From Minisyncoccia bacterium (GTDB lineage: Bacteria; Patescibacteriota; Minisyncoccia; Phycocordibacterales; UBA9973), in NCBI GenBank assembly GCA_044229265.1, contig JBGATK010000002.1:15092-79091 (forward strand): a stretch of 64,000 bases of DNA, in the 5' to 3' direction. The notes beneath the pieces are model-generated. The model did not search any database and was not told the origin of the DNA. It saw only the letters and a program-made list of their open reading frames with translations. The position numbers and the translations under genes are program-made. Shown here piece by piece: positions 2,609 to 60,476 of the stretch (the first letter of the stretch is position 1; each line of letters starts with the position of its first letter).

Positions 2609-2620
2609 TATTATATTATA

Positions 2621-6459: not shown

Positions 6460-6693
6460 TTATCTAAGTATTATAGCAGTGAGTGCTACCCCGGCAAAAA
6501 GTATTGCGCAAACAATAGACAAATAAAAAAGGAATTTTTCAAAACCACGACGAGTGCTATAAAAGGTAGAGCTGTCGCCCGCACCAAGTGCGCCTCCGGC
6601 TCCTGAGCCTGAAGTTTGAAGTAGTATAGACAATATAAGTATGACTGAAAGGATTATTTCTGCGTAAGGCAGAATCTGTTTGATTAGATCCAT
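6460..6693 (-). CDS. secG: Preprotein translocase subunit SecG
   Basis: 77 aa, two TM segments flanking Gly-rich LLQTSGSGAGGALGAG motif typical of SecG. Confidence 0.7.
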   Translation of the reverse strand: MDLIKQILPYAEIILSVILILSILLQTSGSGAGGALGAGDSSTFYSTRRGFEKFLFYLSIVCAILFAGVALTAIILR

Positions 6694-9807: not shown

Positions 9808-11079
9808 TTATATTTGCGAAATGTCGCGGGGTAGGAAGAGGTTGATGGTCCAGTCTATAGCTATGATCAGGCGTTTGCGCCATGAGATGACTTTGGATAG
9901 ATAAACTGTGCGCCAAATCCACCAAGTGATTTTTCCACCGAAGGATATATGGTGAATTTCACCAAGTGCAGACCATTGCCCGAGGGATACGAGGTTGCCA
10001 GCTAAGGCAAATTTATATTTTTCTGGATTTTTGTTTTGAGTTAAAAGTTTTATATTTATTGCAGTTTGTTTCGCTTGGCGTACAGCTACTTGGGCGAGTG
10101 CCGGCGCATACACACCTTCGCGGGTTTCAAAACCAGCAGCATCACCTATAGCAAAAATATTCGGCAGAGTCATATTTTCACCTTCAATTTGAAGGAATTC
10201 ATTGACTACCATTTTTCCATCTGGAAGTTTCTTTAAAGGTATATCAAAATTTAAATTTTGTGGTTTAATACCAGCCACCCAGAAAACATTTTCTGTAAAA
10301 ATTTCTTCACCATTATCTAAAATTATTTTTTCTTTTTCTACTTTCACTACGCCAGTATTTAGCATTACTTGTATGCCTTTTTTTTGCATAACTTTTAGGC
10401 TTCGTTCACGGAGTTTTTGCCCAAATTGTGGCAATAGTTCACGGCCTTTGTGGACTATGATTATAGATACATCTTTCATTAATTTCTTTGCATAATAATA
10501 CGAAAAAGTATCCTGGACGAATTCGAGTAATTCGCCTGCGAGTTCTACGCCTGTAGGCCCACCACCGACTATCACAAAGCGTAGCATTGTTTTTCTTTCT
10601 TTCTCATCAGTTATTTGTGAAGCTTTTTCTATTTGAGTCAAGCAATGATTCTTCATGCGTATAGCATCCGGCAGAGTTTTCAAAGTAAAAGAATTTTCTT
10701 CTGCACCTGGTGTATTAAAAAAGTTCGTCTCGGCTCCCGGAGCAAGCACTAGGTAGTCATAACCCACATTCTTACCAGCGACTTTTACATATTGATCTGT
10801 AGTATTTATCTCTTCTGCCTGGCCGAGGTGAAAGTTGTCGAGGCAACAACCGAGCACTTTGCGTATAGGCTCGGTCACATTTGAAACATGCACACCACCG
10901 GTGGCTACTTCGTGGAGGAGTGGGGTAAATAGAAAATAATTTTTGTCGCCGATGATGGATATTTCGACGCGCTTGTCATTTGCGCAAAAAACTTTGTGCA
11001 AATATTTTAGAGTATAAGTTCCCCCAAAGCCAGTGCCGACGATGAGTATTTTTGTTTTTTTATGTATTCCGTGTGTCAT
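9808..11079 (-). CDS. ndh: Type II NADH dehydrogenase (NDH-2) / FAD-dependent pyridine nucleotide-disulfide oxidoreductase
   Basis: two Rossmann GxGxxG motifs (ILIVGTGFGG; VIVGGGPTGVELAGEL), ~420 aa. Confidence 0.8.
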   Translation of the reverse strand: MTHGIHKKTKILIVGTGFGGTYTLKYLHKVFCANDKRVEISIIGDKNYFLFTPLLHEVATGGVHVSNVTEPIRKVLGCCLDNFHLGQAEEINTTDQYVKVAGKNVGYDYLVLAPGAETNFFNTPGAEENSFTLKTLPDAIRMKNHCLTQIEKASQITDEKERKTMLRFVIVGGGPTGVELAGELLEFVQDTFSYYYAKKLMKDVSIIIVHKGRELLPQFGQKLRERSLKVMQKKGIQVMLNTGVVKVEKEKIILDNGEEIFTENVFWVAGIKPQNLNFDIPLKKLPDGKMVVNEFLQIEGENMTLPNIFAIGDAAGFETREGVYAPALAQVAVRQAKQTAINIKLLTQNKNPEKYKFALAGNLVSLGQWSALGEIHHISFGGKITWWIWRTVYLSKVISWRKRLIIAIDWTINLFLPRDISQI

Positions 11080-11152
11080 TTTTTTAGTATAACAAATTTT
11101 TCAAGAATTTTCCTTGCTTTTTATTTTTAACCAATTGTATAATATAGGCACA

Positions 11153-14100
11153 ATGCTATATCGGGTAAAATTCTTACCTTATATTCTCGTGGCATTCTTT
11201 GCCAGCTTGTTCTTCTTTGTTTCATTTTTACATCATGCTTTTGCATTTACTTATGTAAATACTGATATAAATACAGACACTACTTGGACACTATCCGGTA
11301 GTCCGTATATTATCGAGAAAACTATTATTGTTTTAGATGATGCGACGCTCTCTATCGAGCCCGGAGTCGCTATTAAATTTAAGGTGAAAGAGCCACTCTC
11401 TAATATGTATGTTTTTGGTAAAATTATTGCACAAGGCACAAATGATATGCCGATATATTTTACTTCTCTTTATGATGATATTGTTGCGCCGGAAACAGAT
11501 GATGAAGAATTTTGTGATGAAGAGTATGATGCCAAAGGCAATGTAATTTCTAAAACTAATTGTATATATTTGGATTTTTATGATCCACAGCCGAGGGACT
11601 GGGGAGGTTTATTTTTTATTTCTTCTTTAGGCTCTACTTTAGAAAACACTCATTTCTCGTATGGAAAGAATTTTTTTACTGTTCAAGAATCTGATATAAA
11701 TATTTTTAGAAATATAGAAATATCTCACGGCGAGCAAGGCATGGTTCTTTTTAATCATAGTTCTGTGAATTTTGAAAATGCAAAGTTAAAAGATATTTCC
11801 AGCAATGGCATCACTCTTTTCAATAATAGTTTTTTAAATTTTGATAAATTTATATTTGAAGAAGTGAATCGAAATCCGGCAATAGTTTTTAATGAGTCAT
11901 CTTTTTCAGGCCGTGGCCTCGATATGGGTCCGGGTATTACCAGTTCACGGCGCGATTATATCGTAGCTTTCAATGGCTCAAACTTAGTTTTAAAAGATTC
12001 TATTTTTAGAGATTGCGATCTAGGTTCATGTATAAATATTTTTGATGGCAGTAGTTATGAAGGCGAGGCTTCACTGCTAGATATAGATAAAACTATTTTC
12101 GAAGGAGGCAATGAAACAGCTATTACTATTTTTGGGTCTTTACCAATTAAAGCGAAAATAAACAATTCTGTTTTTGGTGATTTTCCTTTATATTCTATAG
12201 ATAATTTTTCTACAGATTTTGTTGTAGATGCTCGCAAGAATTTTTGGGGTAATGCTTCCGGTCCTTTTCATGCAACTGCAAACCCCACAGGTTTAGGAGA
12301 AAAAATTTCTGGTTTAGTGGATTTCGATCCGTGGTGTAAAACTCCTGACTGCACTTTCCGCAACCCTGTAATTTTTATCCCAGGAGTAATGGGTAATGAT
12401 ATTCTGCGCCCCGCCGAGGGTGATGAAGACGCTCCTCAAAAACTTTGGCTAAATATTACAAAAATGATTACAGATATTGGTGATGATTTTATGGATGCTT
12501 TAGGGCTGAATGAAGATTTTACACCGCTAAAAGATAATTTGATTATTGGAGATTTGATTAAAGAACCTTTAATCGGCCAGCATTTTTACGATAAAATTAT
12601 AGATGAACTTGTATTGCAAGGCTATGTCGAAGGTGAAGACATTTTCATTTTTCCTTACGATTGGCGCTATGGTGTGAGTGATGAAAATATAGCTTTATTA
12701 AAACAAAAAATTACAGATGTAAAAAACATTAAAGGTAGTGACAAGGTAGATGTAGTGGCTCATTCTACCGGTGGCTTGCTCGTAAAAAAATATGTAATAG
12801 ATAATTCTGCAAATCATAGTATAGATAAAGCTGTATTTGTAGGTGTACCATCTGCTGGCGCACCGCAAGCCGTAAAGATGCTTGTACAAGGTGATAATAT
12901 GAGAATACCATTTTTAGATTCGGATGAAATGAAAAAGATCGCAAAGAATTTACCTGTAGTTTATGACTTGTCTCCGAGCCTCGAATATTACAATAAAAAG
13001 GGAAGTTATATACAAATAAAGAATGTCATACCTTTTAAAAAGTCTACAATTAAAGATTTAAATTTTACAGAAGCAAATAATTATTTAATAGAAAAAGGTA
13101 AAAATAAAATAGCTTTGGAAGATGCTCATATTTTACATACTAAAGAATTCGATAATTTTGATATGCGCACAAGTGGAGTAGATGTATACAATATTGCTGG
13201 TTGCAAAGCTAGCACTTTTGGTACTTTAGTAGAAATTCATAATAAAAATATTTCAAAAAAAGATTTAGTATCGTATCGGGAACCGATATACATAAAAGGC
13301 GATGGCACAGTGCCACTCGAAAGTGCGACATTTTTACCAGTCGATGAGGCAAAAAGATTTTTTTCTCTAAATGCAGATCATGCTAAAATGCCCTCGCAAG
13401 ATGGCACGCGTCAGCTCATTACAAATATTATCTCTGGCAGTTCACTCCCTACTTCAAATAAAATCACTCAAGACATTGCGAAATGTAAATTAAATGGCAG
13501 GTCTATAGCAGTGTATAGCCCTGTAAATATCGAAGTCATAGATCAATACGGCAATAGGCTAGGTATTTTAGAAGATGGTATAAATACAGAAAATAATATT
13601 CCAAATGCGTATTTTGATATTGTAGATGAACATAAGTTTTTGTATTTACCTACAGATGAGGGTCAAATATATACGATAAATATCAAAGGCACAGGTGGGG
13701 GCACTTTTACTATTACTGATACAAAAATAGTTGATGATATAAAAACAGACATGCAAATTTTTAAGAATTTAGTAGTATCGCCAGCTCTCGTGGGAAGTAT
13801 TGTTTTAGGTGATGAAAGTATTTTGAATTTAGATAATGATGGCGATGGTGATGTAGATCAGAATTTAAAACCAGATATATTTTTAGATGAGGTAGAAGTA
13901 TTAGATTTTGAACCATATTTAGAAGAAAAATTAGAGGAAGAAATACCAAGAGTTGCTTCGTTTGGCGGTGGGGGCGGTGGAGGTTTCCCATTTGTATTTG
14001 TGGAACAAATAAAATCTTTGGCTTTGCTTCCACAAGTCCTCGGAGCTGAGACTAGTATAGTTGATACAGAAAAAGAAGCCTTTGAAAATAAAGAAAATTC

Positions 14101-14320
14101 TAAGCCTTTAATTATTCAAAATTCAGAAAAACCTAATATTGTATTAGATAATTCTTTTACTAATAATCCGCAAATTAAAGAAGAGAATATAGAAAATGCA
14201 AAAAATGCTAATATAATAATAGAAGAAAAAATAGAAAATAAATTTAGATATGAATACATAATTTATATCTTAATCATTATTGGTATTATCTTATTAGTAA
14301 AAAAAATTATAAAGTTGTAG
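11153..14320 (+). CDS. very large cell-surface protein: signal peptide, parallel beta-helix repeats, alpha/beta-hydrolase lipase domain (GxSxG = HSTGG, LCAT/PGAP1-like), Gly-rich segment, C-terminal TM anchor
   Basis: signal-like MLYRVKFLPYILVAFFASLFFFVSF; FIPGVMGN + VAHSTGGL lipase motifs; FGGGGGGGF then C-terminal hydrophobic YIIYILIIIGIILLV; TATAAT 9 nt upstream of ATG 11153 (ORF track start 11114 probably alternative). Confidence 0.6.
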   Translation: MLYRVKFLPYILVAFFASLFFFVSFLHHAFAFTYVNTDINTDTTWTLSGSPYIIEKTIIVLDDATLSIEPGVAIKFKVKEPLSNMYVFGKIIAQGTNDMPIYFTSLYDDIVAPETDDEEFCDEEYDAKGNVISKTNCIYLDFYDPQPRDWGGLFFISSLGSTLENTHFSYGKNFFTVQESDINIFRNIEISHGEQGMVLFNHSSVNFENAKLKDISSNGITLFNNSFLNFDKFIFEEVNRNPAIVFNESSFSGRGLDMGPGITSSRRDYIVAFNGSNLVLKDSIFRDCDLGSCINIFDGSSYEGEASLLDIDKTIFEGGNETAITIFGSLPIKAKINNSVFGDFPLYSIDNFSTDFVVDARKNFWGNASGPFHATANPTGLGEKISGLVDFDPWCKTPDCTFRNPVIFIPGVMGNDILRPAEGDEDAPQKLWLNITKMITDIGDDFMDALGLNEDFTPLKDNLIIGDLIKEPLIGQHFYDKIIDELVLQGYVEGEDIFIFPYDWRYGVSDENIALLKQKITDVKNIKGSDKVDVVAHSTGGLLVKKYVIDNSANHSIDKAVFVGVPSAGAPQAVKMLVQGDNMRIPFLDSDEMKKIAKNLPVVYDLSPSLEYYNKKGSYIQIKNVIPFKKSTIKDLNFTEANNYLIEKGKNKIALEDAHILHTKEFDNFDMRTSGVDVYNIAGCKASTFGTLVEIHNKNISKKDLVSYREPIYIKGDGTVPLESATFLPVDEAKRFFSLNADHAKMPSQDGTRQLITNIISGSSLPTSNKITQDIAKCKLNGRSIAVYSPVNIEVIDQYGNRLGILEDGINTENNIPNAYFDIVDEHKFLYLPTDEGQIYTINIKGTGGGTFTITDTKIVDDIKTDMQIFKNLVVSPALVGSIVLGDESILNLDNDGDGDVDQNLKPDIFLDEVEVLDFEPYLEEKLEEEIPRVASFGGGGGGGFPFVFVEQIKSLALLPQVLGAETSIVDTEKEAFENKENSKPLIIQNSEKPNIVLDNSFTNNPQIKEENIENAKNANIIIEEKIENKFRYEYIIYILIIIGIILLVKKIIKL

Positions 14321-14330
14321 AATTATATAT

Positions 14331-14675
14331 ATGAAAAAAATATGGCTTTGGGTATTTATGATAATGTTTCTTTTACCAGAGATTTTTTGGAGTCCCATAA
14401 TTAATTTTATTTATTCTTTTGTTAAGCCAACAATAAATGGTTCTATACAAGTTTTTAATCATAATTTTTTGTTAAATACAGAAGATAATAATTTATATTT
14501 ATTTATTTTATTAATACAAATTATCGGAATATTTGGAACTTTAGTCCAGGTGCGTAAATTAAATTTAAACAGGGTGTTGAAATTATTAATATATATAATT
14601 CTTGGTATTATTTTAATTCTCACAATTTTTATTTTTTATATTCTTTTTTCTACTCGCCACGGTATAGGCTTCTAA
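14331..14675 (+). CDS. hypothetical multi-TM small membrane protein
   Basis: 114 aa, 3-4 hydrophobic helices. Confidence 0.35.
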   Translation: MKKIWLWVFMIMFLLPEIFWSPIINFIYSFVKPTINGSIQVFNHNFLLNTEDNNLYLFILLIQIIGIFGTLVQVRKLNLNRVLKLLIYIILGIILILTIFIFYILFSTRHGIGF

Positions 14676-15841: not shown

Positions 15842-15856
15842 TATAATTAAAATGTT

Positions 15857-16249
15857 ATGGAAAAAGATTTTGATAAGTGGAATGAAATCAAAAAGAAGAT
15901 TCATCAAGAGGAGAATATCCCAGATCGTTTTCCAAAAGAAGGCGAAGTTTGGATGTCTAACCTTGGTAAGAATATTGGATTTGAACAAAATGGAGGTGGA
16001 GAAAATTTCTCTAGGCCTATTTTAATAATTAAGAAATTCAATAATCATATGTTTTGGGTAGTACCTTTGTCCACAAAACAGAAAAATTTTGATTTTTATT
16101 ATAATTTTATAGATATAGATAATAAAAAAGTTTCAGCTATTCTTGCCCAATTAAAATTAATGAGTGTCAAAAGATTTAATAGAAAAATGTATGAAATGCC
16201 TCAAAATCAATTTGTTGATGTTTTGAATAAAATTAGAGGATTTATCTAA
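15857..16249 (+). CDS. MazF/PemK-family endoribonuclease toxin-like protein (solitary, no adjacent antitoxin seen)
   Basis: GEVWMSNLGKNIGFEQNGGGENFSRPILII...FWVVPLSTKQ matches MazF/PemK G-x-I/V-x-L-x-G-x-EQ-x-RP-x-LI-x-VxPxT pattern. Confidence 0.6.
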   Translation: MEKDFDKWNEIKKKIHQEENIPDRFPKEGEVWMSNLGKNIGFEQNGGGENFSRPILIIKKFNNHMFWVVPLSTKQKNFDFYYNFIDIDNKKVSAILAQLKLMSVKRFNRKMYEMPQNQFVDVLNKIRGFI

Positions 16250-16403: not shown

Positions 16404-16664
16404 ATGAAAAATAAAAATGACAAATTACATAGCTTGCCGGCAGATTTTAAGGAAGCGATAGATTCAAAAAGGGCAGTAGCTCATATGTGGCAGGATATCA
16501 CTCCGCTTGCTCGCAATGAATGGATCTGCTGGGTAGAATCTGCCAAAAAATTAGAAACTAGGCAAAGGCGAATAAAAATAGCCCTTTCGAAAATGAGCTC
16601 CGGCGAAAAGCGCCCCTGCTGCTGGGCCGGCTGTTCGCATCGAGGGAATAAAACAGTGGTATAA
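16404..16664 (+). CDS. YdeI/OmpD-associated (bacteriocin-protection) family small protein
   Basis: W-rich core and C-terminal CCWAGCSHR motif typical of YdeI-like family; 3' 122 bp duplicated downstream. Confidence 0.5.
   Translation: MKNKNDKLHSLPADFKEAIDSKRAVAHMWQDITPLARNEWICWVESAKKLETRQRRIKIALSKMSSGEKRPCCWAGCSHRGNKTVV
16522..16643. repeat. direct repeat copy 1 (3' end of ydeI-like gene), 122 bp
   Basis: 121/122 identical to 17312-17433. Confidence 0.9.
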
Positions 16665-16671
16665 TTTATAT

Positions 16672-17154
16672 ATGGAAAAGACAAGTATTTATATTGATGG
16701 AAATAATCTATATAGATCTGCAAAAGAGCTCGGTTTTAATATTGATTACAAAAAATTCATAGGATGGCTTCGTCAAAAATATAATCCAGAATTCGTTTAC
16801 TTGTTTATTGGTCTCGTGCCAGAGAGAACAAAGTTTTATGAACATCTACAAAAATGTGGTTATGTTTTAATTTTTAAACAAACTGTATCTGTGGGAGAAA
16901 AAATAAAAGGTAATTGTGATGCAGAACTGGTATTAAAAGCTGTTTCGGATTATTATACTAACTCATTTGATAAATTAATTTTGATTACTGGTGACGGGGA
17001 TTTTGGTTGCTTGGTGGAATTTATGAAAGATAAAAATTCGATGCATACTATTATTGCACCTGATGAAAAGAAATGTTCTTTTTTACTTAGAAATAAAAAT
17101 ACTGAAATTGTTTTTCTTAACAATCAATATCATAAATTCTCTAAGGAGCTATAA
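16672..17154 (+). CDS. NYN-domain (LabA/DUF88-like, PIN-fold) putative RNase
   Basis: IYIDGNNLY start and ILITGDGDFGCLVE motif typical of NYN domains; gene is bracketed by the 122-bp direct repeats. Confidence 0.65.
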   Translation: MEKTSIYIDGNNLYRSAKELGFNIDYKKFIGWLRQKYNPEFVYLFIGLVPERTKFYEHLQKCGYVLIFKQTVSVGEKIKGNCDAELVLKAVSDYYTNSFDKLILITGDGDFGCLVEFMKDKNSMHTIIAPDEKKCSFLLRNKNTEIVFLNNQYHKFSKEL

Positions 17155-17475: not shown

Positions 17476-17484
17476 TGTTAGAAT
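17476..17484 (+). promoter_or_regulatory. extended -10 (TGtTAGAAT) 6 nt upstream of ATG 17491: leaderless promoter for the mazG-like operon
   Basis: TGn + TAGAAT, 6-nt spacer to ATG. Confidence 0.5.
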
Positions 17485-17490
17485 TTGGGC

Positions 17491-17838
17491 ATGTCTGATT
17501 TACAAAAACTAACAAAGCAAATAAACAAATTCCGAAAAGAACGAAATTGGGAACAATTCCATAATCCTAAAGACATGGCTCTTTCGTTGGTTTTAGAGGC
17601 GACAGAGTTGATGGAGCATTTTCAGTGGAAAAACGGTGAAGATTTAACAAATTATATAAAGAAAAATAAAAAAGAAATTTCTTATGAACTTGCAGATACT
17701 CTTTATTGGGTTTTAACTATTGCTCATGATTTTAATATTGATATTGTAAAATCTTTTACTGAGAAGATGAAAATTAATGCAAAAAAATATCCTGTTTCAA
17801 AATTCAAAGGACGTGCTGGCAAATATAATGAAGTATAA
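17491..17838 (+). CDS. MazG-like nucleoside triphosphate pyrophosphohydrolase
   Basis: EATELMEHF...LADTLYWVL motifs of the all-alpha MazG/NTP-PPase fold; ORF track start 17485 is a TTG, ATG at 17491 preferred. Confidence 0.7.
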   Translation: MSDLQKLTKQINKFRKERNWEQFHNPKDMALSLVLEATELMEHFQWKNGEDLTNYIKKNKKEISYELADTLYWVLTIAHDFNIDIVKSFTEKMKINAKKYPVSKFKGRAGKYNEV

Positions 17839-20987: not shown

Positions 20988-20994
20988 ATTATAG

Positions 20995-21000
20995 TATAAT
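20995..21000 (+). promoter_or_regulatory. -10 TATAAT 6 nt upstream of ATG 21007 (leaderless)
   Basis: TATAAT-aaataa-ATG. Confidence 0.45.
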
Positions 21001-21006
21001 AAATAA

Positions 21007-21525
21007 ATGACAAAATATATAGTATTTGTGGCAGCTATGCTTTTTATTGGTTTTATTTTTCCTATACTTAAAAAGAAATTAGAGGGCAAGGAAGAAAAAC
21101 CAGCTTTATCTAATTATTTTAATAGAAGAAAATTTTTGTTTGATGTAGCTTCAGAATTGAATTTTTATAAAATATTGATGGAATTATATGGTAATAATTA
21201 TAGAATATTTGCTCAAGTGCAATATAGTCACCTTGTAGAACCAAAGAAATCTTTATCTTTTGTAGAAAGTAGAAAATATAGAAATATGATTGATAGAAAG
21301 TCGGCTGATTTTGTGATTTGTGATAAGGATACTATAGCTCCGATCTTAGTAATAGAGCTCGACGGTAGTGTTCATTCCCAAGCTAAAGTAAGAATAAATG
21401 ATGAATTTAAAAACGAAATAACTAAAGTTGTGGATTTACCATTGCTTCGCATTAATGCTGAGAATATAGATAAAGAATATATAAAAAATAAAATAGATTC
21501 AATTATTTCTTCTCGATTAAATTAA
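21007..21525 (+). CDS. DUF2726-domain protein (restriction-endonuclease-like fold)
   Basis: N-terminal TM; NFYKILMELYG...RIFAQVQYSHLV...ADFVICDKDTIAPILVIELDGSVH pattern typical of DUF2726. Confidence 0.55.
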   Translation: MTKYIVFVAAMLFIGFIFPILKKKLEGKEEKPALSNYFNRRKFLFDVASELNFYKILMELYGNNYRIFAQVQYSHLVEPKKSLSFVESRKYRNMIDRKSADFVICDKDTIAPILVIELDGSVHSQAKVRINDEFKNEITKVVDLPLLRINAENIDKEYIKNKIDSIISSRLN

Positions 21526-22528: not shown

Positions 22529-22544
22529 ATATAATATAAAATAT

Positions 22545-22952
22545 ATGAGCAACACAAACAATTGGTATAGCACTCTCATAAAGCCTTCGTTTGCACCACC
22601 TTCATGGCTTTTTGGTCCAGTCTGGACTGTGCTTTATGCTATTATCGCTATTTCTTTCGGTACTGTGTTTTATAAAGCATTTACTAAACAAATTCCATGG
22701 ATGGTGGCACTGCCTTTTGTGCTAAATTTAATTTTTAATTTTTCTTTTACTTATTTTCAATTTGGTTTAAAGAATAATCTTCTGGCATCTATTGATATTT
22801 TGCTCGTCGTCGGCACTCTAGTTTGGGCACTCTATGCGGTTTGGCACAATGTGCCCGAGCTACGTTGGGTAGCTTATGTAAATATCCCATATCTTTTGTG
22901 GGGAAGTTTCGCCACTGTCCTCCAATTAACCATAACTTACTTGAATAAATAA
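22545..22952 (+). CDS. tspO: TspO/MBR (tryptophan-rich sensory protein) family, short form
   Basis: WYSTLIKPSFAPPSWLFGPVWTVLYAIIA N-terminal signature. Confidence 0.7.
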   Translation: MSNTNNWYSTLIKPSFAPPSWLFGPVWTVLYAIIAISFGTVFYKAFTKQIPWMVALPFVLNLIFNFSFTYFQFGLKNNLLASIDILLVVGTLVWALYAVWHNVPELRWVAYVNIPYLLWGSFATVLQLTITYLNK

Positions 22953-24113: not shown

Positions 24114-24357
24114 TAAATTCGGTTTTGAGGACAATACCTTTCATGCCATCTATACTGCACTCTATTAAACCTTCTTCGTCAGTAAGGCGGATGTTTTTGG
24201 CTTTAGTGCCTTGTTTTATGACAGTATTGCTACCTTTTAATTTTAAATCTTTAACTAAAATAATACTGTCGCCATTTGCCAAAATATTGCCATGAGCATC
24301 GCGCTCTATTATTTCTTCTTCTATTTCATCATCTTTATCTTCTTCATTTTTATTCAT
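24100..24357 (-). CDS. PhnA-like C-terminal domain protein (YjdC-like)
   Basis: DAHGNILANGDSIILVKDLKLKGSNTVIKQGTKAKNIRL...IDGMKGIVLKTEFIKK matches PhnA C-domain pattern. Confidence 0.65.
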   Translation of the reverse strand: MNKNEEDKDDEIEEEIIERDAHGNILANGDSIILVKDLKLKGSNTVIKQGTKAKNIRLTDEEGLIECSIDGMKGIVLKTEFIKKA

Positions 24358-24371
24358 AATCAGAGTATATA

Positions 24372-24635: not shown

Positions 24636-24675
24636 AATTATTTTTTAAGATATTATAAAGTGTTATAATATTCTT

Positions 24676-25176
24676 ATGATTAAAAAAGCGTATTTAGCAG
24701 GAGGGTGCTTTTGGGGGCTCGAAGAGCTTTTTCGCACACAAAAGGGCGTACTGAATATCGACGCAGGGTATACGGGTGGTAGCGTGGAAGCACCTACTTA
24801 CATGAATCACGATGGACATGCCGAAGCATTAGAAATAACTTATGACGACATGCAAACAGATTTTTGGCACCTCTTAGATTTCTTTTTTCAAATTCACAAT
24901 CCAACTACACTAAACAGGCAAGGCAATGATATAGGTACGAGTTATCGTTCTGCAATATTTTATCAGAATGATGAGGAAAAAAAGCAGGCCGAAGATTTTA
25001 TAAAAATCGTGAACGATAGCAAGAGGTGGCCGGATCCTGTGGCGACGACTCTTGAGCCTTTTACAAAATTTTACAAAGCCGAAGAATACCATCAGGATTA
25101 TTTGCAGAAAAATCCTGGTGGCTATACTTGCCATGCGATATATTTCGATTCGTACTTAAAAGATGAAAAAAGTTAA
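24676..25176 (+). CDS. msrA: Peptide methionine sulfoxide reductase MsrA
   Basis: GGCFWG active-site motif near N-terminus, 166 aa. Confidence 0.9.
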
Positions 25177-26768: not shown

Positions 26769-26872
26769 ATTTAGTTGTTGAAGGTGAAGAATATTTGCCT
26801 TTAGATTAACACACTAGCTCCAAAAAGCAAATTTCTTTATTTTAGAATTTTTTTGTTATAATACTCTTTTAT

Positions 26873-27553
26873 ATGGCAATAAAATTTTTACAATTAAATA
26901 TCGAGACGAATAAACATTTGGAGCGTATCATACCTTTTCTCGAGAAAGAAAATTTTGACGTTATTTGTTTTCAAGAAATTTACGAGAATGATGCAAAAAT
27001 GTTGGCTGAAAAATTTAACTTACATTTATGTATGGGCAAAGAGCTTTTGTGTAAAGGTGATAGCAAGGCAATATTTTCAAAACACCCATTTGTAAAAACT
27101 ATGGAATACCACCTCTGGCAAGGCGATCATCGTTACCATTTAAAAAATGAATCTTTTTCTTTACTCGAAGCACATATATCAGAGGAAGGCAGAGAATACA
27201 CATTTCTTACTACACATTTACCGGTATCATATCCTGGCAATATTATCGCCGATTATCAATTAGAGTGTTATAAAGCTTTGAAGTCGATTTTAGAAAAAGA
27301 GCAGAATTTACTTTTTACTGGCGACCTAAATTCCCCACGAGGAACTTTTATTTTTGATGATTTAGCGAGTTTTTTGGTGGATAATGTGCCAGTAAATTTA
27401 GATTCTACCTTAGATCCAAATTTACACAGAACAAAAGGTGAATTTAAATACGTAGTAGATGGGGTTTTTTCAAAAGGTGATCATCAGGTATCAGGAATTT
27501 CTATTCATGAAGGTCTTAGTGACCATAAAGCTATATCTGGAAAATTAGAATAA
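26873..27553 (+). CDS. Endonuclease/exonuclease/phosphatase (EEP) family protein
   Basis: LNIETNKHLERIIPFLEKENFDVICFQEI start; C-terminal SDHKAI motif. Confidence 0.7.
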   Translation: MAIKFLQLNIETNKHLERIIPFLEKENFDVICFQEIYENDAKMLAEKFNLHLCMGKELLCKGDSKAIFSKHPFVKTMEYHLWQGDHRYHLKNESFSLLEAHISEEGREYTFLTTHLPVSYPGNIIADYQLECYKALKSILEKEQNLLFTGDLNSPRGTFIFDDLASFLVDNVPVNLDSTLDPNLHRTKGEFKYVVDGVFSKGDHQVSGISIHEGLSDHKAISGKLE

Positions 27554-28222: not shown

Positions 28223-28228
28223 TATAAT
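28223..28228 (+). promoter_or_regulatory. -10 TATAAT 7 nt upstream of ATG 28236 (leaderless)
   Basis: TATAAT-tattcac-ATG. Confidence 0.45.
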
Positions 28229-28235
28229 TATTCAC

Positions 28236-29609
28236 ATGACTCAAGATGAGGCACTCAATATTTTAAAAACTGGCGCAAATGTATTCCTTTCTGGCGAGCC
28301 GGGTGCCGGTAAGACATATACTATAAATAAATATGTAGAGTATTTGCGTTCATGTGATGTGGATTACGCTATCACAGCATCTACCGGTATAGCTGCTACT
28401 CATATAAGTGGTATGACTATTCATTCGTGGAGTGGTATAGGTATAAAAGAAATTCTGTCGCCTTACGATTTAGATAAAATAGCTACGAGTGAATATATCG
28501 TGCGTCGCATAAGAAAAACAAAAGTCTTAATTATCGACGAGATATCAATGCTTCGCGCGCAGACTCTCGATATGGTAGATGCAGTTTGCAGAGAAATAAA
28601 ACAAAATAGTGAACCTTTTGGTGGTATGCAAGTCGTATTAGTCGGCGATTTTTTTCAACTTCCGCCAATTAATAAAATAAAAAATGAAAGTCTAGAGAAT
28701 AATCAAAATAAATTGATTGAAGAAAAAGTGGGGAATTTCGCTTTCGAATCTAGAGTTTGGGAAAAGCTAAGTCCAGTCGTATGCTACATTAGTGAACAAC
28801 ACAGGCAGGAGGATAAAGAATTTTTAGAAGTACTTCTTGCTATTCGGCAGAATAATTTTGATATAAAACATCACGAATACATGCAAACTCGTTTTGTAGA
28901 AAAAAATAAATTTCCATCCAATATTACAAAACTTTACACTCATAATCTCGATGTCGACAGGGTTAATAATGATATGCTCGCAAAGATAGAAGGGGAAAGT
29001 GTAAAGTATGAAATGGAATCTTCGGGCACACCAGCATTGTCTACGAATCTAAAAAAAGGTTGCCTCTCGCCTGAAATTTTATATTTAAAAAAGGGAGCAG
29101 TAGTAATGTGCACAAAGAATAATCCTAAAGAGGGTTATGTAAATGGCACGCTCGGCACCGTGGTAGAATTTGATGCTTTTTCAAATAATCCTATTGTTAA
29201 AATTCGTTCAGGTAGAAATATCGAAATTACACCTATGGATTGGAGTATCGAAGACAATGGTAAAATCAAAGCTAAGATTACTCAGATACCACTTCGCCTC
29301 GCATGGGCTATCACTGTCCACAAGAGCCAAGGAATGTCGCTCGACTCTGCTGTTATGGATTTATCCTCTGTTTTCGAATATGGTCAAGGTTATGTAGCTC
29401 TCTCTCGTGTTCGCACTTCGGGTGGTTTGTATTTATTAGGCTTAAATGCACAAGCTCTACGAGTGCATCCAGAAATTTTAGAAAAAGATATCTTCTTTAA
29501 AGAAAATTCAAAAAAAGCGCAAGAAGTTTTTGGAGCTTTAAGTAAAGAAGAGCTTAAAAATATGCACAAGAATTTTATATTAGCTATCGGTGGAAAATCT
29601 AAAATATGA
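28236..29609 (+). CDS. PIF1/RecD-like SF1B DNA helicase
   Basis: Walker A GEPGAGKTYT, Walker B LIIDEISML, LVGDFFQLPPI, ITVHKSQGMSLD motifs. Confidence 0.8.
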   Translation: MTQDEALNILKTGANVFLSGEPGAGKTYTINKYVEYLRSCDVDYAITASTGIAATHISGMTIHSWSGIGIKEILSPYDLDKIATSEYIVRRIRKTKVLIIDEISMLRAQTLDMVDAVCREIKQNSEPFGGMQVVLVGDFFQLPPINKIKNESLENNQNKLIEEKVGNFAFESRVWEKLSPVVCYISEQHRQEDKEFLEVLLAIRQNNFDIKHHEYMQTRFVEKNKFPSNITKLYTHNLDVDRVNNDMLAKIEGESVKYEMESSGTPALSTNLKKGCLSPEILYLKKGAVVMCTKNNPKEGYVNGTLGTVVEFDAFSNNPIVKIRSGRNIEITPMDWSIEDNGKIKAKITQIPLRLAWAITVHKSQGMSLDSAVMDLSSVFEYGQGYVALSRVRTSGGLYLLGLNAQALRVHPEILEKDIFFKENSKKAQEVFGALSKEELKNMHKNFILAIGGKSKI

Positions 29610-29645
29610 ATATAAATAAGAAAATATGTTATAATATATGCATAT

Positions 29646-30047
29646 ATGATTAAAGGATATAAAGGAAAAATTGAAGAGCTTACTTTGGCTAATAATTCAT
29701 TTCGCAAAGTGCTCTATACTGCCGAGCATTCTCAGCTTGTGCTTATGAGCCTTTTACCACTGCAAGATATTGGTTTTGAAGTTCATACTAGTAATGATCA
29801 ATTTTTTCGTTTTGAAAGTGGAACAGGTAAAGTAATAATAAATGAAAGTGAATATGATGTGGAGAGTGGCGATGCAGTGTTGGTGCCACAAGGAGCAAAA
29901 CACAACATCATGAATACTTCAGATACTTTGCCACTCAAACTCTATACAATATACGCTCCAGCTCATCATAAAGATGGAGTGGAAAGAATAACTAAAGAAG
30001 ACGCCATAATGAGTGCTCCAGAATACGACGGAAAAAATACTGAGTAA
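29646..30047 (+). CDS. cupin-domain protein
   Basis: GDAVLVPQGAKHNIMN...LYTIYAP cupin motifs. Confidence 0.6.
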   Translation: MIKGYKGKIEELTLANNSFRKVLYTAEHSQLVLMSLLPLQDIGFEVHTSNDQFFRFESGTGKVIINESEYDVESGDAVLVPQGAKHNIMNTSDTLPLKLYTIYAPAHHKDGVERITKEDAIMSAPEYDGKNTE

Positions 30048-30094
30048 GAAGAATAAATTTATGGAAAAATAAAAAAAATTAGTAAAATAAAAAC

Positions 30095-30544
30095 ATGAAT
30101 ACACAAACATTAAATTTCTCGATTCTTATAAATGCACCAAAAGAAAAGGTGTGGGAAAAAATGCTCTCTGATGAGAGTTACCGCAAGTGGACTAGCGTCT
30201 TTAATCCAACTTCGCATTTTGTAGGTGATTGGAGTGCTGGTTCAAAAATGCTTTTTGTAGGCTCGGATGAGAAGACTGGTAAAGAGGGGGGCATGGTGTC
30301 GCGTATTGCTGAAAATAGAATGCATGAATACATGTCTATTGAGCATTTAGGTTTATTGAACGATGGTGTAGAAGAACTCTGGAGTGAGGAAAAAAATGGT
30401 TTTGAAAATTATACTTTTTTAGATAAGGATGGTGGCACCGAGTTAAAAATAGAAATGACCAATGTACCGACAGAATGGGCCGATATGTTTACTGGCATGT
30501 GGCCAGCGAGTCTGCAAGCTCTAAAAAATATTTGTGAAAAATAA
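30095..30544 (+). CDS. SRPBCC (AHSA1/START-like) domain protein
   Basis: FSILINAPKEKVWEKMLSDESYRKWTSVF N-terminal signature of AHSA1-type SRPBCC. Confidence 0.6.
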   Translation: MNTQTLNFSILINAPKEKVWEKMLSDESYRKWTSVFNPTSHFVGDWSAGSKMLFVGSDEKTGKEGGMVSRIAENRMHEYMSIEHLGLLNDGVEELWSEEKNGFENYTFLDKDGGTELKIEMTNVPTEWADMFTGMWPASLQALKNICEK

Positions 30545-32711: not shown

Positions 32712-33579
32712 ATTGGCTAAAAGGAAGTTCTACAAAGAATGTAGTACCCTTGTCGCGCCCCTTTGATTTCGCATAAATATTGCCTTTATGACGCAGAATT
32801 ATCTTTTCAGATAGATATAATTTTAAACCCATACCATCAGGATTCATGAGAGTGGATTTTTTTCCACGGAAGAATTTTGCAAAAATTTTATTTCTCTCAA
32901 ACCAAGAAAGTCCTATACCAGTATCAGCCACAAATATTGTAATATTTTTTTTGCCAAGTGTTGCATCTATCAAAACTTTACCATTTGCTGGTGTATACAT
33001 AACAGCATTTTCTACCAGTGTTTCAATAACAAAAGTTATTTTTTTAAGATCCATAGTGAGTAGTGGTATGTCTTTAAAACTAGATATTTGGAAATCTAAA
33101 CTCTTTTTATTTATGGCTTCACGATATTTACTCATAACATTTTCTACAATACTGCGTACACTGGTTGCTTTGAAATCATAACTTTTTGTATCTTTTATGT
33201 CTTTGATGCCAGCAATCATATCCACCAAGTCCAATACTTTTGACACGGCATTATTTATTTTTTGTAGGTACGTCAAGCGTTCGTTTTGAGGAATATCTTT
33301 TTCCATTTCTTTAGTAAACCAAAGTACACTAGTAAGTGGCGTGCGAAAAGTATGATTCACAATAGAAGTAAATTCGTATTCAGTTCTATGTACTTTCATT
33401 TGCAGGGCTGTATACCTTGCTATAAGTAATACAACTCCGAGGAATGTAATCATAGGAATAAATAATTTAGGTAAATTAAGAAGATAGGTGATTTTTATAT
33501 TGTATAGTGCTAAGTAAAAAATCCCGAAAACATACAATACCCAAAATGTGATTTTAACTATTTGCCAAATTTTTTTCAT
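32710..33579 (-). CDS. Sensor histidine kinase (2 TM + HisKA + HATPase_c), no cognate response regulator nearby
   Basis: H-box TSIVNHTFRTPLTSV; G-box VADTGIGLS; 289 aa. Confidence 0.8.
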   Translation of the reverse strand: MKKIWQIVKITFWVLYVFGIFYLALYNIKITYLLNLPKLFIPMITFLGVVLLIARYTALQMKVHRTEYEFTSIVNHTFRTPLTSVLWFTKEMEKDIPQNERLTYLQKINNAVSKVLDLVDMIAGIKDIKDTKSYDFKATSVRSIVENVMSKYREAINKKSLDFQISSFKDIPLLTMDLKKITFVIETLVENAVMYTPANGKVLIDATLGKKNITIFVADTGIGLSWFERNKIFAKFFRGKKSTLMNPDGMGLKLYLSEKIILRHKGNIYAKSKGRDKGTTFFVELPFSQ

Positions 33580-33635
33580 GGCTATAGTATAACATTTTCA
33601 TTACTTTTGTTGCTAGTATTTTCACTTATTTCTGT

Positions 33636-33641
33636 TATAAT
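33636..33641 (+). promoter_or_regulatory. -10 TATAAT 6 nt upstream of ATG 33648 (leaderless)
   Basis: TATAAT-aaaaat-ATG. Confidence 0.4.
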
Positions 33642-33647
33642 AAAAAT

Positions 33648-34478
33648 ATGAAAAAATTTATCCAGAATTTTAAAGATAGTTTACTTAATAAAGAATTTTA
33701 TCAAAATTTAATCAAACACGAAGAATCCACAGGATTTTCTTATTTATTTAAATTGGCTATTTTGTCTGCTTTTGTTCTGTGTATATACATGATTTGTTTC
33801 GTGTATTTTTTTAATCTTGATAATAAAATTAGAAATCAAATCACACAGATTTTACCGCCTGACTTGGTGCTCACTATAGATAAAAATGGTGAATTGTCTG
33901 TAAATAAACCAGTTCCTTATGTAATACCAACCCCAGATTTTTTAATCGATGAAAATAATAAAGAGAAAGAAAGAAAGAATTTCATAACTATTTACCCAGA
34001 AAAAGATCCTAATAGTGTAGAATTCAAAACATATGACACTATGATATTTGTATCCAAAGATCGTTTTTTTGTGGAAAGAGATATCAATGGAGAAATTCGC
34101 AGTTATCCTTTAAAAGATTGGAGTGGGGTTACTATCTCTAGAGCTGAGGTTTTATCTGTTTTCGATACTCTTTATAACAGAGGTTGGATTATAATCTTGC
34201 TCGGCATGATTCCTTTTACTATAGTATACATGTTTATATCTTTCTTTATTTCTGTAATTTCTGGTTTTATTTTGTTTTTATTATTCAGAAAATCTTTGAC
34301 TTACAAAAAAGCTTTATTAGTAGCAATACATGCATTTACTATTTCTTTTGTATTTAATATATTGATTAGCATTTTAAAACCAGCTCAAAGTTTCTTTTGG
34401 TGGCAAGTTCTAATTACTGTGATTGCAGGGTATTATTTTATCGGTAATAAACATAGTGGCGATGTAGTTCAAAGTTAA
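33648..34478 (+). CDS. DUF1189-like polytopic membrane protein
   Basis: N-terminal MKKFIQNFKDSLLNKEFYQNLIKHEESTGFSYLFKLAIL resembles DUF1189 start; several TM helices; tentative. Confidence 0.35.
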   Translation: MKKFIQNFKDSLLNKEFYQNLIKHEESTGFSYLFKLAILSAFVLCIYMICFVYFFNLDNKIRNQITQILPPDLVLTIDKNGELSVNKPVPYVIPTPDFLIDENNKEKERKNFITIYPEKDPNSVEFKTYDTMIFVSKDRFFVERDINGEIRSYPLKDWSGVTISRAEVLSVFDTLYNRGWIIILLGMIPFTIVYMFISFFISVISGFILFLLFRKSLTYKKALLVAIHAFTISFVFNILISILKPAQSFFWWQVLITVIAGYYFIGNKHSGDVVQS

Positions 34479-35566: not shown

Positions 35567-35757
35567 ATAGTAAATTTGTTTTATAATAATTATTAGAAAA
35601 GCAGAATAATACCAAAGTAGGTGTTTGGATTGATCCGCATTGGATACGTTATTTTTTCTTCTTTCATTTATGCAGTATACCCCAACACTTAAAATATTCA
35701 TAATTTTAAGTGTGTGGGTATAGCATTAATCTCTTTATTTTGTTATGCTCATTAAAT

Positions 35758-37251
35758 ATGGCAAAAGAGGAAACGGTCCTGCGATTTGAGAGAGTCAATT
35801 TTGAATATGGCCACAATAAACCCATCTTGGATGAGGTTTCTTTTTCTGTGCGAAAGGGAAGCAAGATAACTATCATGGGGCAAAATGGTGCGGGCAAGAG
35901 TACTATCTTTGGACTTATCACTCGCGCACTTAATCCAGAAGATGGCAATGTAATCATAGGTAATAAATATAGCATCGCAATTTCCAAGCAAGTAATACCT
36001 AGAGAAGATATGGAGCTAACAGTTAGAGATTTTTTCCATAAATGTTTAGTGGGTGATGATAAAAATAAAAAAATTTACGACATTGATCCTCGCATTGATG
36101 ATGTGCTCGAAGTTGTGAATTTGAGGGGCCATACAAAAGTACACGATAGAATAATCAAAACATTTTCTGGTGGTCAGCAAGCGCGCATTTTACTAGCCTC
36201 AGCACTGATCCAAGATCCAGACATTTTACTTCTCGATGAGCCTACTAACAACTTAGACTCTGCTGGTATTGCGCACCTGACAGACTTTCTTAAAAATTAT
36301 AATAAAACTGTATTAGTGATTTCCCACGATGCGGATTTCTTAAATGCTTTTACAGATGGAGTTTTGTATTTAGATATTCATACTCTCAAAGTTGAGCAAT
36401 ATGTAGGTAATTATAAAAATGTATTAAAAGATATCACTGCTCGAGTAGAAAGGGAGAATATGAAAAATGCTCAACTTGCAAAAGAAATTCAAGCCAAGAA
36501 AGATCAAGCAAATGTTTTTGCTCATAAGGGCGGAGGTCTTCGTTTGGTGGCGCGTCGCATGCGTGAGAAAGCAGAAGAATTGGAAGATGAGATGGTGGAT
36601 GTGCGCAAAGAAGATAAAACCATTCGTCCATTTATTATTCCACATCAGGAAGATCTACAAGGAGAAATTATTTCCATAGAATCTTTTACTACACTAAATA
36701 ATAAAACTGGCAAAGAAGTAAAACACAAAATAAGTATAAAGCTCAAGAAAAATCAACACTTATTTTTGCAAGGACCAAATGGTATCGGTAAGAGTACCTT
36801 ACTAGAGAGGCTCGCAAGTGGAAAGGCAGAAGGTGCGAAAATTCAGGAAGGCGTGCGAGTTGGATACTACAGGCAAGATTTTTCTACACTAAATTTTAAC
36901 GACACAGTAAAAGAATCTTTATCGAAAGTTCTTCTTGAAGTAACTGGTAAAATAGATGAAGAATATATGCGTTCTGTAGCTGCGAATTTTCTTATCACAA
37001 GTGATATCATAAATACAAAAATTGGCGCTCTCTCTGAAGGGCAAAAAGGCCTAGTGGCTTTTGCTAGGCTTGTGCTCGAGCGACCTGGACTACTCATACT
37101 CGATGAACCAACAAATCATATAAATTTTAGACACTTACCTATAATCGCAGACGCTATAGATAAATACAAAGGCGCTTTGATCTTAGTGTCTCACGTAAAA
37201 GAATTTGTAGAAAAAATTCGTATAGACGAGACTCTCGATTTGGATCAATAA
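35758..37251 (+). CDS. ABC-F family ATPase (tandem ABC domains, EttA/Uup-like translation factor)
   Basis: two Walker A (GQNGAGKST; GPNGIGKST), two signature motifs (SGGQQARI; SEGQKGLV), no TM domains; ATG at 35758. Confidence 0.8.
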   Translation: MAKEETVLRFERVNFEYGHNKPILDEVSFSVRKGSKITIMGQNGAGKSTIFGLITRALNPEDGNVIIGNKYSIAISKQVIPREDMELTVRDFFHKCLVGDDKNKKIYDIDPRIDDVLEVVNLRGHTKVHDRIIKTFSGGQQARILLASALIQDPDILLLDEPTNNLDSAGIAHLTDFLKNYNKTVLVISHDADFLNAFTDGVLYLDIHTLKVEQYVGNYKNVLKDITARVERENMKNAQLAKEIQAKKDQANVFAHKGGGLRLVARRMREKAEELEDEMVDVRKEDKTIRPFIIPHQEDLQGEIISIESFTTLNNKTGKEVKHKISIKLKKNQHLFLQGPNGIGKSTLLERLASGKAEGAKIQEGVRVGYYRQDFSTLNFNDTVKESLSKVLLEVTGKIDEEYMRSVAANFLITSDIINTKIGALSEGQKGLVAFARLVLERPGLLILDEPTNHINFRHLPIIADAIDKYKGALILVSHVKEFVEKIRIDETLDLDQ

Positions 37252-37504: not shown

Positions 37505-37532
37505 TTATGAATTATGTTATAATTAACGTATT

Positions 37533-39277: not shown

Positions 39278-39306
39278 TTGACTTTGATTTTGACTTCGTA
39301 TATACT
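39278..39306 (+). promoter_or_regulatory. sigma70-type promoter for 16S rRNA: TTGACT - 17 bp - TATACT
   Basis: near-consensus -35 and -10 with optimal 17-bp spacer about 310 nt upstream of mature 16S 5' end. Confidence 0.6.
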
Positions 39307-39618: not shown

Positions 39619-41228
<1,610 letters not shown>

Positions 41229-42878: not shown

Positions 42879-42912
42879 AAAAAAGACGAATTTTATGTTA
42901 ATATATACTTCT

Positions 42913-58106: not shown

Positions 58107-58178
58107 TTTGAATGATTTCTATCATCAATGCCTGTAGAGATTTACTTGCAGGCATTTTTTGTAGTATAATTTATTGTA

Positions 58179-60464: not shown

Positions 60465-60476
60465 TATTTATATATA

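Follow-up and report, generated by a model that had tools for sequence, protein, structure and literature searches.

An extended -10 promoter directly abuts the start codon of many genes in the DNA stretch analysed here, 64,000 nt of a Minisyncoccia bacterium (GenBank assembly GCA_044229265.1, contig JBGATK010000002.1, positions 15,092 to 79,091 of the forward strand; hereafter, the window). A TATAAT-like hexamer (the box) lies 5–11 nt before the ATG in 25 of the 64 window genes (~39%), or in ~45% if weaker boxes are included, and the window has neither Shine–Dalgarno (SD) motifs nor an anti-SD in its 16S rRNA. Since a -10 box stands 6–10 bases before the ATG in ~40% of the genes, the mRNAs concerned probably begin at the start codon. 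Leaderless initiation from start-abutting extended -10 promoters in anti-SD-less Paceibacteria is the explanation that we favour and hold to be very probable. It had been proposed in an original prediction made from the letters of this stretch, and every test run (spacing, TGn extension, gene context, absence of SD and anti-SD, conservation and controls) supported it; it is from these that we infer the leaderless step itself.

The SecA protein encoded at 42913–45399 is 100% identical to a protein of an NCBI metagenome-assembled genome (MAG), and its nearest named neighbours, at 73–77% identity, belong to Ca. Paceibacterota, Nomurabacteria, Pacebacteria and Minisyncoccia, which places the window in the genome of an ultra-small bacterium of the Parcubacteria/Paceibacteria, within the Patescibacteria, or candidate phyla radiation (CPR). 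The unlinked 16S rRNA gene, with its insertions, is likewise CPR-like.

Position and promoter identity of the hexamer

Window genes (n = 64) were called heuristically as non-overlapping open reading frames (ORFs) beginning at the leftmost ATG, with a cut-off of 80 aa. A box was defined as TAnnnT with at most one mismatch to TATAAT, T1, A2 and T6 being kept, and the spacer as the number of nucleotides between box and ATG. All 11 TATAAT-(6–9 nt)-ATG sites named in the original prediction were recovered at the same positions and with the same spacers, including the index example, in which TATAAT at 20995–21000 is followed by the spacer aaataa and the ATG at 21007. Beyond these, exact TATAAT boxes precede the ATGs at 2608 (minus strand), 16672, 22545, 24676, 26873, 29646 and 60477, and boxes with one mismatch those at 11079, 24357 and 33579 (all minus strand), 14331, 30095, 25270 and 23349. 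Three further genes (35758, 42913, which is secA, and 50928) carry weaker boxes that are TGn-flanked or conserved.

The hexamer as such is not over-represented. At 34% GC, the window contains 122 exact copies of TATAAT on both strands against 115.5 ± 10.6 in dinucleotide shuffles of the window, and a generic sigma-70 two-hexamer (-35/-10) scan returned 86 sites against 85.5 expected; showing no enrichment over shuffles, such a scan is uninformative at this GC content. An ATG lies 5–10 nt downstream of 21 of the 122 copies; 17 of these ATGs head ORFs that span 80 codons or more, 16 of them being gene beginnings and one (34206) an internal in-frame ATG. In a histogram of box positions before 59–64 window gene starts, with the expected count per offset taken from the flanks, the leftmost-ATG calls give a sharp peak at spacer 6 (11 observed versus 0.93 per offset, Poisson P ~5e-9), and spacers 5–10 together hold 22 boxes where 5.6 are expected (P ~1e-7). 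The positional enrichment anticipated in the original prediction is therefore present, and the proviso that it might not exceed an AT-rich background does not apply: the enrichment is purely positional, is no artefact of AT-richness, and only 3.3% of genes in low-GC control loci carry a box. Nor were the start codons picked to suit the boxes. In 21 of the 25 box-bearing genes, no other possible start separates the ATG from the in-frame stop before it, and in many of the encoded proteins Pfam domains begin within residues 1–10 (NYN at residue 3, PMSR at 4, Lactamase_B_3 at 3, AAA_19 at 3, DUF1189 at 6, Exo_endo_phos at 8 and Pyr_redox_2 at 10).

The hexamer behaves like a promoter and not like a ribosome-binding site. 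The TGn of extended -10 promoters precedes 12 of the 22 boxes with spacers 5–10, against a TG dinucleotide frequency of 5.6% (P ~8e-10). In an alignment from 80 anti-SD-less metagenome loci, the TGn positions hold T in 72% and G in 67%, an upstream T-tract is present, and the consensus is TTTnTGnTATAAT. Box occurrence also depends on gene context. In the window, a box precedes 1 of 11 genes (9%) whose gap to the co-directional upstream stop is ≤5 nt, 5 of 12 (42%) at gaps of 6–25 nt and 4 of 5 (80%) at gaps of 26–60 nt; in 24 other Patescibacteria loci, the shares are 9% at gaps ≤5 nt versus 32–40% at 6–60 nt (window and 24 loci pooled, box versus gap, Fisher P = 2.5e-6). Such rarity at abutting genes, combined with abundance at gaps of 6–60 nt, is the behaviour of a promoter rather than of a ribosome-binding site. 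So is the occurrence of TGnTATAAT at variable distances from genes: of its 16 sites in the window, 9 abut a start codon, 5–6 lie 30–70 nt upstream of a gene and 1–2 are intragenic. Upstream of the 16S rRNA gene, a TATAAT-type hexamer occurs in a classical promoter context (TTGACT-17 nt-TATACT), and the box motif could not base-pair with the 3′ tail of the 16S rRNA. Our impression, gained from aligned promoters that reach just 20 nt upstream of the hexamer and so stop before the place of a -35, is that the -35 element is slight or absent.

Loss of the anti-SD and occurrence of the arrangement in other genomes

The original prediction held that the listed starts lack an SD, and this is borne out across the window, where the SD cores upstream of the 64 starts (GGAG 0/64, GAGG 1/64, AGGA 2/64) are all at or below background. 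The 16S rRNA gene lies at 39618–41230. Its Rfam alignment reaches the last model position, 1533, and after helix 45 the tail reads GGAUUAAUUCAAUU instead of the consensus GGAUCACCUCCUUU, so the anti-SD is gone. The 16S tails of loci L081, L084 and L001 (55% GC) resemble one another and likewise lack CCUCC. A scan for the anti-SD-less tail gave >120 metagenome contigs, several of them from the Hainich wells, and 80 of the contigs, almost non-redundant, were analysed; the same tail is thus carried by at least 80 largely non-redundant contigs.

The sequence that replaces the anti-SD (41219–41240; UUCAAUUUGAAA) is conserved over ~20 nt across many lineages and GC contents as GGAWUAAUUCAAUUUGAAA(A), and contains the near-palindrome UUCAA-U-UUGAA; its UUUGAAA part lay outside the search pattern. 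It may serve as a processing site, contact a protein or belong to the mature tail. When the 16S 3′ tail and trailer of four relatives were folded, the tail was unstructured (z-scores -0.7 to -2.9), which leaves the conservation unexplained. A new SD pairing with the replaced tail was considered and rejected as unsupported. Although the tail-complementary 5-mers AAAAT, AAATT and ATTAA are enriched before box-less genes relative to the whole-window background, this is uninformative, as it is inseparable from intergenic AT-richness and upstream TAA stops, and the informative G/C-containing complements TTGAA, TGAAT, GAATT and ATTGA show no upstream enrichment in 186 box-less metagenome-locus genes.

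To compare groups, one pipeline was used throughout, the control loci being 20-kb secA neighbourhoods. A box at spacer 5–10 is found in 37% of genes in the window and an SD-like motif in 3% (59 genes); the respective shares are 31% and 10% in three close relatives (39 genes), 22% and 15% in 21 other Patescibacteria loci (291 genes; with a spacer-6 peak and TGn in 32/65), 3.3% and 38% in 20 low-GC loci of other phyla (269 genes), and 1.3% and 36% in 38 high-GC loci of other phyla (524 genes). Fisher P for the group contrasts ranges from 6e-12 (window versus low-GC controls) to 1e-25. Low-GC controls of 29–33% GC (L028, L061 and L073) have a box in 0–3% of genes, whereas relatives at 54–55% GC (L001 and L003) show the same layout, as in ttgtgaTACTATcgcggtATG and agtgtTATACTcaccgtATG of L003. 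The other Patescibacteria loci include Saccharibacteria-labelled, Microgenomates, Adlerbacteria and Sungiibacteriota records, and the box also occurs in Patescibacteria loci that use SD-like motifs (L039, L044 and L078). Among 265 flanking genes of the 80 anti-SD-less metagenome loci, 30% have a box and 11% an SD-like motif; spacers 6 and 7 account for 27 and 12 copies of exact TATAAT, respectively, where ~0.6 per offset would be expected, and TGn accompanies 44 of 80 boxes. A start codon that opens an ORF of at least 60 aa follows 6–10 nt after 39–56% of the TGnTATAAT occurrences in Patescibacteria sequences (~95% of these start codons being ATG), compared with 7% in the controls.

Among the matches listed in a scan of contigs with a SecA alignment, no relative was closer than 66% identity; closer, syntenic relatives (L081, L083 and L084, with SecA identities of 87%, 80% and 75%) came from a separate search for contigs encoding SecA relatives. 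Across the window and its relatives, the box spacers are 8, 8, 6 and 6 nt for the Ddl-like ligase, 8, 7 and 8 nt for Lactamase_B_3, 6, 6 and 8 nt for the Mur ligase, and 8, 9, 7 and 8 nt for secA. More widely, secA is preceded by TGnTAnnnT-N6-10-ATG in most Patescibacteria loci and by a GGAG-type SD in Firmicutes and other controls. The N-terminal residues of the orthologs in the three relatives align with the predicted starts, favouring 41496 over 41490 and 46700 over 46667, and the independent NCBI call for SecA (P0001, 828 aa) begins at 42913. Four competing ORF starts had been described in the original prediction as lying upstream of the box; this is true of 11114 and 46667, whereas the spacer, immediately after the box, holds 41490 and 17485, which are thus upstream of the predicted transcription start site rather than of the box.

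Individual sites and neighbouring genes

Coordinates of box-bearing starts, leadered promoters and the 16S rRNA 3′ end in the window
Feature	Positions	Strand	Remark
TATAAT + 6 nt + ATG 2608, MFS transporter	2606..2620	-	
Leadered promoter TGcTATAAT, 46 nt upstream of ATG 6421 (SBP_bac_5)	6470..6478	-	
TGtTATACT + 6 nt + ATG 11079, NDH-2-type oxidoreductase	11077..11091	-	Pfam domain from residue 10
TATAAT + 9 nt + ATG 11153, 1055-aa LCAT/beta-helix protein	11138..11155	+	TTG 11114 upstream of box
TAGAAT + 7 nt + ATG 14331	14318..14333	+	
TGaTATAAT + 9 nt + ATG 15857, PemK/MazF-like toxin	15842..15859	+	TGn from upstream gene's TGA stop
TGgTATAAT + 6 nt + ATG 16672, NYN domain protein	16660..16674	+	box within upstream gene's 3′ end
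TGtTAGAAT + 6 nt + ATG 17491, MazG-like	17479..17493	+	TTG 17485 in spacer
TATAAT + 6 nt + ATG 21007, DUF2726 protein, 172 aa	20995..21009	+	in-frame stop 3 nt upstream
TATAAT + 9 nt + ATG 22545, TspO/MBR	22530..22547	+	
TATACT + 6 nt + ATG 24357, acidic 85-aa ORF	24355..24369	-	
TGtTATAAT + 6 nt + ATG 24676, MsrA	24664..24678	+	PMSR domain from residue 4
TGtTATAAT + 10 nt + ATG 26873, Exo_endo_phos	26857..26875	+	
TGtTATAAT + 7 nt + ATG 28236, PIF1-like helicase	28223..28238	+	AAA_19 from residue 3
TGtTATAAT + 10 nt + ATG 29646, cupin	29630..29648	+	
TAAAAT + 6 nt + ATG 30095	30083..30097	+	weaker box
TGtTATACT + 6 nt + ATG 33579, histidine kinase	33577..33591	-	
TGtTATAAT + 6 nt + ATG 33648, DUF1189	33636..33650	+	domain from residue 6
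TGtTATGCT + 8 nt + ATG 35758	35744..35760	+	probable true start; ORF listed from GTG 35710
TGtTATAAT + 9 nt + ATG 37533, PG_binding protein	37518..37535	+	terminator-like hairpin directly before
TTGACT-17 nt-TATACT, canonical two-hexamer promoter, ~310 nt upstream of 16S rRNA	39278..39306	+	direct sequence reading
16S rRNA 3′ end	41182..41240	+	helix 45, then GGAUUAAUUCAAUUUUGAAAU; CCUCC anti-SD absent
TATAAT + 8 nt + ATG 41496, Ddl-like ligase	41482..41498	+	box/spacing kept in L081, L083, L084
TGtTAATAT + 8 nt + ATG 42913, SecA, 828 aa (P0001)	42899..42915	+	non-consensus -10
TATAAT + 6 nt + ATG 46700, Mur ligase, 413 aa	46688..46702	+	TTG 46667 upstream of box; L081 ortholog 413 aa
TAGTAT + 6 nt + ATG 50928, 893-aa Mur-ligase fusion	50926..50940	-	weak; kept in L081; L083 TAAGAT + 6
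TGcTATAAT + 8 nt + ATG 53322, Lactamase_B_3	53308..53324	+	box kept in L081, L084
TATAAT + 8 nt + ATG 58179, methyltransferase	58165..58181	+	
TATAAT + 11 nt + ATG 60477	60460..60479	+	would leave ~5-nt leader
Further leadered TGnTATAAT promoters (genes 21626, 30630, 39104, 61389)	21585, 30554, 39043, 61308	+	

Several box sites are paired. The promoters of 11079 (minus strand) and 11153 (plus strand) form a divergent pair, and those of 33579 (minus) and 33648 (plus) stand back-to-back within a 68-nt intergenic region. The Mur ligase gene at 46700 has tandem consensus -10 boxes, TGgTATAAT at 46605–46613, which lies ~85 nt ahead of the ATG, still inside the 3′-terminal part of the preceding MFS gene, and TATAAT at 46688–46693, and may give rise to both leadered and leaderless transcripts. 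Inside the DUF1189 gene (33648–34478), TATAAT is followed after 10 nt by the in-frame internal ATG 34206 (34190–34208), which may be an internal leaderless start with a 90-aa C-terminal product or a chance occurrence. Before the ATG 14761 of a 38-aa hydrophobic ORF (14746–14877), TATAAT is followed by the 6-nt spacer AAGGAG, by chance a perfect SD-like hexamer in a genome without an anti-SD.

A defence-/toxin-like gene cluster at 14300–21600, with a leaderless-type promoter before most of its genes, comprises the PemK/MazF-like gene 15857, the NYN nuclease gene 16672, the MazG-like gene 17491 and the DUF2726 gene 21007, as well as a Schlafen-group-3 helicase fused to a Peptidase S24 domain (17842–19866). 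Lactamase_B_3 (53322) leads an operon that continues with a 74-aa ORF (53958–54182) and gyrA (54194). This ORF, on the plus strand, encodes a membrane protein of 73–86 aa in relatives and is coupled between its two neighbours; like a SecG-like 77-aa ORF (6460–6693, minus strand), it falls below the 80-aa cut-off. The window also encodes a deoxyhypusine synthase homolog (8732–9715; Pfam DS, E = 2e-35), here in a bacterial genome.

The gene for ribosomal protein S1 (368 aa; three S1-domain stretches in Pfam) has no -10 box at its start; its upstream region (53063–53130, minus strand) shows a conserved hairpin and a conserved UUUUUAUUUAAG leader in L081, L083 and L084, and the S1 mRNA may be leadered and autoregulated. 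The 16S rRNA gene stands alone, with no 23S, 5S or tRNA gene within the 64-kb window, the next gene being the Ddl-like ligase at 41496; it is ~80 nt longer than the model through small insertions and would have a leader of ~310 nt from the 39278–39306 promoter. Two tiny lysine-rich ORFs lie beside the 16S/ddl region, namely MAKGTGARKEKKKPKKSK (39104–39160), ~50 nt downstream of the TGaTATAAT promoter at 39043, and MAAKKKAAKKTTKKVVKKAAKKTTKKRA (42731–42817).

Proposed leaderless initiation, its alternatives and known systems

In the mechanism that we propose, a sigma-70-type RNA polymerase would recognize extended -10 promoters of the form TTTnTGnTATAAT, with little or no contribution of a -35 element. 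In sigma-70 promoters, transcription as a rule begins 7 nt downstream of the hexamer's final T, so the predicted +1 would fall on the A of the ATG at the modal spacer of 6, and spacers of 7–10 would leave leaders of 1–4 nt. The 5′-terminal or near-terminal AUG would then be read directly with initiator tRNA through the leaderless pathway, with no SD/anti-SD pairing. The remaining genes would be served in two ways. Stop-start overlap with the upstream gene, or a gap to it of ≤5 nt, suggests termination–reinitiation; such coupled genes make up ~17% of window genes. A minority would be transcribed from the same promoter type 30–70 nt upstream, with an AU-rich SD-less leader, and the 5–6 consensus TGnTATAAT promoters found at that distance from genes indicate that leadered mRNAs coexist with leaderless ones. 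Leaderless starts had been called dominant in the original prediction; at ~39% of all genes and roughly half of the uncoupled ones, they would form the largest single start class, but not a majority of all genes.

Three other explanations were weighed against leaderless initiation. Since DNA of 34% GC is rich in both TATAAT-like hexamers and ATGs, some will fall 6–9 nt apart by chance, and the unremarkable global counts of TATAAT and of two-hexamer sites agree with this; yet chance accounts neither for the sharp spacer-6 peak and its TGn co-enrichment, nor for the near absence of boxes from low-GC controls, the shared layout of relatives at 54–55% GC and its retention in orthologous genes. The positional and comparative tests already refute it, and we give it virtually no credence. 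The promoters could also be real and the start codons mis-called, the true starts lying downstream behind ordinary 5′ untranslated regions, as the heuristic calls and the in-frame ATGs within 9–17 codons at 14331, 21007, 25270, 53322, 58179 and 60477 would permit. This is very improbable given that Pfam domains align from residues 1–10, that N-termini are shared among orthologs, that the NCBI call for SecA agrees (42913), and that no SD precedes the downstream ATGs in a genome whose 16S rRNA lacks an anti-SD.

A slightly better case, albeit still a very improbable one, can be made for the hexamer as an mRNA element in leadered transcripts. It would then be a non-SD ribosome-binding site or AU-rich enhancer like those of GeneMarkS-2 group B, and might pair with the changed end of the 16S rRNA or be bound by S1. 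The distance from the start resembles that of a ribosome-binding site, the box precedes some genes that begin only 7–25 nt after a co-directional gene, and the ~20-nt conservation of the replaced 16S tail suggests some function. However, the motif equals the extended -10 consensus of sigma-70, down to the TGn and a T-tract further upstream, recurs 30–70 nt upstream of other genes, and is also found in SD-using Patescibacteria loci; it has no complementarity to the 16S tail, whose G/C-containing complements are not enriched. Moreover, group B motifs are found ahead of every gene (PMC6028130), whereas this one hardly ever occurs at stop-start coupled genes; the group B pattern of a single motif standing at a constant short spacing from every start, those of internal genes included, is not seen in the window.

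Leaderless initiation, our preferred explanation, faces several difficulties of its own. Both the heuristic gene calls and the use of secA neighbourhoods rather than whole genomes as controls are weaknesses of the analysis, and +1 was placed by assuming promoter geometry of the E. coli type. Some boxes lie in co-directional gaps of 7–25 nt, which in most bacteria are operon-internal positions, and in ~10 genes spacers of 8–11 nt would leave leaders of 2–5 nt, so that these mRNAs would not be strictly leaderless. Neither a box nor tight coupling is found for ~35–40% of genes. Because uncoupled genes without a box exist, at least 5 of them with a consensus promoter 30–70 nt upstream, SD-independent leadered initiation must also operate.

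Among known systems, the window is most readily compared with group C of GeneMarkS-2, which comprises genomes with frequent leaderless transcription, mainly from Actinobacteria and Deinococcus-Thermus (Mycobacterium tuberculosis, Streptomyces, Corynebacterium, Deinococcus deserti; Lomsadze et al. 2018, PMC6028130). In group C, a Pribnow-type TANNNT lies 6–8 nt from the starts of operon-first genes and is absent before internal genes, and an estimated 25–50% of transcripts are leaderless (PMC6028130); CPR and Patescibacteria are not mentioned in the main text of that paper. The window shares the TANNNT localized before starts (peak spacer 6, range 6–10) and its scarcity before operon-internal genes (9% at ≤5 nt versus 32–80% at 6–60 nt). 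However, group C genomes keep the anti-SD and use SD sites for their other genes, whereas the window has neither. Code-11 group C genomes are almost all high-GC (MetaGeneMark-2 preprint, bioRxiv 10.1101/2022.07.25.500264), whereas the window is at 34% GC, uses extended -10 promoters and has an own promoter at many short co-directional gaps. Code-4 Mycoplasma, also classed as group C with 30–60% of transcripts predicted to be leaderless (bioRxiv 10.1101/2022.07.25.500264), shares low GC and a reduced genome with the window, but belongs to a different phylum, uses genetic code 4 and has an SD-type ribosome-binding-site model for its other genes.

Initiation without SD is also known from Flavobacterium johnsoniae (Bacteroidetes/Flavobacteriia; group B; PMC6847099), and Chryseobacterium, Mycoplasma and Carsonella are listed as anti-SD-less by Amin et al. 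2018 (PMC6107228). All of these organisms are devoid of SD motifs throughout their genomes, and some also lack the anti-SD, as the window does. In Bacteroidetes, however, mRNAs are leadered and every gene is preceded by an A-rich, Kozak-like context, whereas the signal in the window is a promoter restricted to uncoupled genes. In haloarchaea and Sulfolobus (group D) and in mammalian mitochondria, leaderless mRNAs are the main class too, although the transcription machinery (in archaea, TATA/BRE at about -26) and evolutionary origin are different. The mitochondrial small-subunit rRNA also lacks an anti-SD.

Within the lineage of the window, the CCUCCU motif was detected in only 48% of Parcubacteria, SD helices were inferred not to form, and loss of the anti-SD co-occurs with loss of uL1 and often bS21 (Tsurumaki et al. 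2022, RNA 28:1041, PMC9297842). The loci for these ribosomal proteins lie outside the window, which has the same 16S tail without CCUCCU. The word 'leaderless' is absent from that paper, which does not address the initiation mode of anti-SD-less genes. Surveys of anti-SD-less organisms (PMC6107228, PMC10783764) do not include this group, and in the open-access literature we found nothing relevant on leaderless starts in Patescibacteria, CPR, Parcubacteria or Saccharibacteria. The window seems to extend the leaderless group C type of genome, itself known, to a lineage for which we found no such report in the open-access literature, and the type seems not to have been described for this group. 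Three features make it a variant: neither SD nor anti-SD is present at all, extended -10 promoters stand in short gaps between co-directional genes, and the GC content is low.

A broader proposal, which we find plausible while leaning slightly against it, is that leaderless initiation from start-abutting extended -10 promoters is a phylum-wide trait of Patescibacteria, whether or not they use SD motifs; that in a large anti-SD-less subgroup of Paceibacteria it has, together with stop-start reinitiation, fully replaced SD-dependent 30S docking; and that the prior reliance on leaderless mRNAs permitted the decay of the anti-SD. If true, bacteria would here parallel mitochondria and haloarchaea, and gene callers trained on SD sites would have systematically misplaced starts in the annotation of many CPR genomes.

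The arrangement described here offers a candidate answer to the question of how roughly half of the Parcubacteria, being anti-SD-less (PMC9297842), initiate translation, namely at a 5′-terminal AUG provided by an extended -10 promoter 6 nt upstream, complemented by stop-start coupling. For the annotation of CPR MAGs, TGnTAnnnT-N6-ATG would be a strong predictor of start codons and promoters, and for the few genetically tractable CPR strains a ready expression signal. If leaderless initiation is indeed a principal mode, the CPR, a huge radiation with mostly uncultured members, would be added to the few bacterial groups that rely on it, with genomes that, unlike those of Actinobacteria and Deinococcus, are low-GC and minimal, which bears on the ideas that leaderless initiation is ancestral or favoured by genome reduction.

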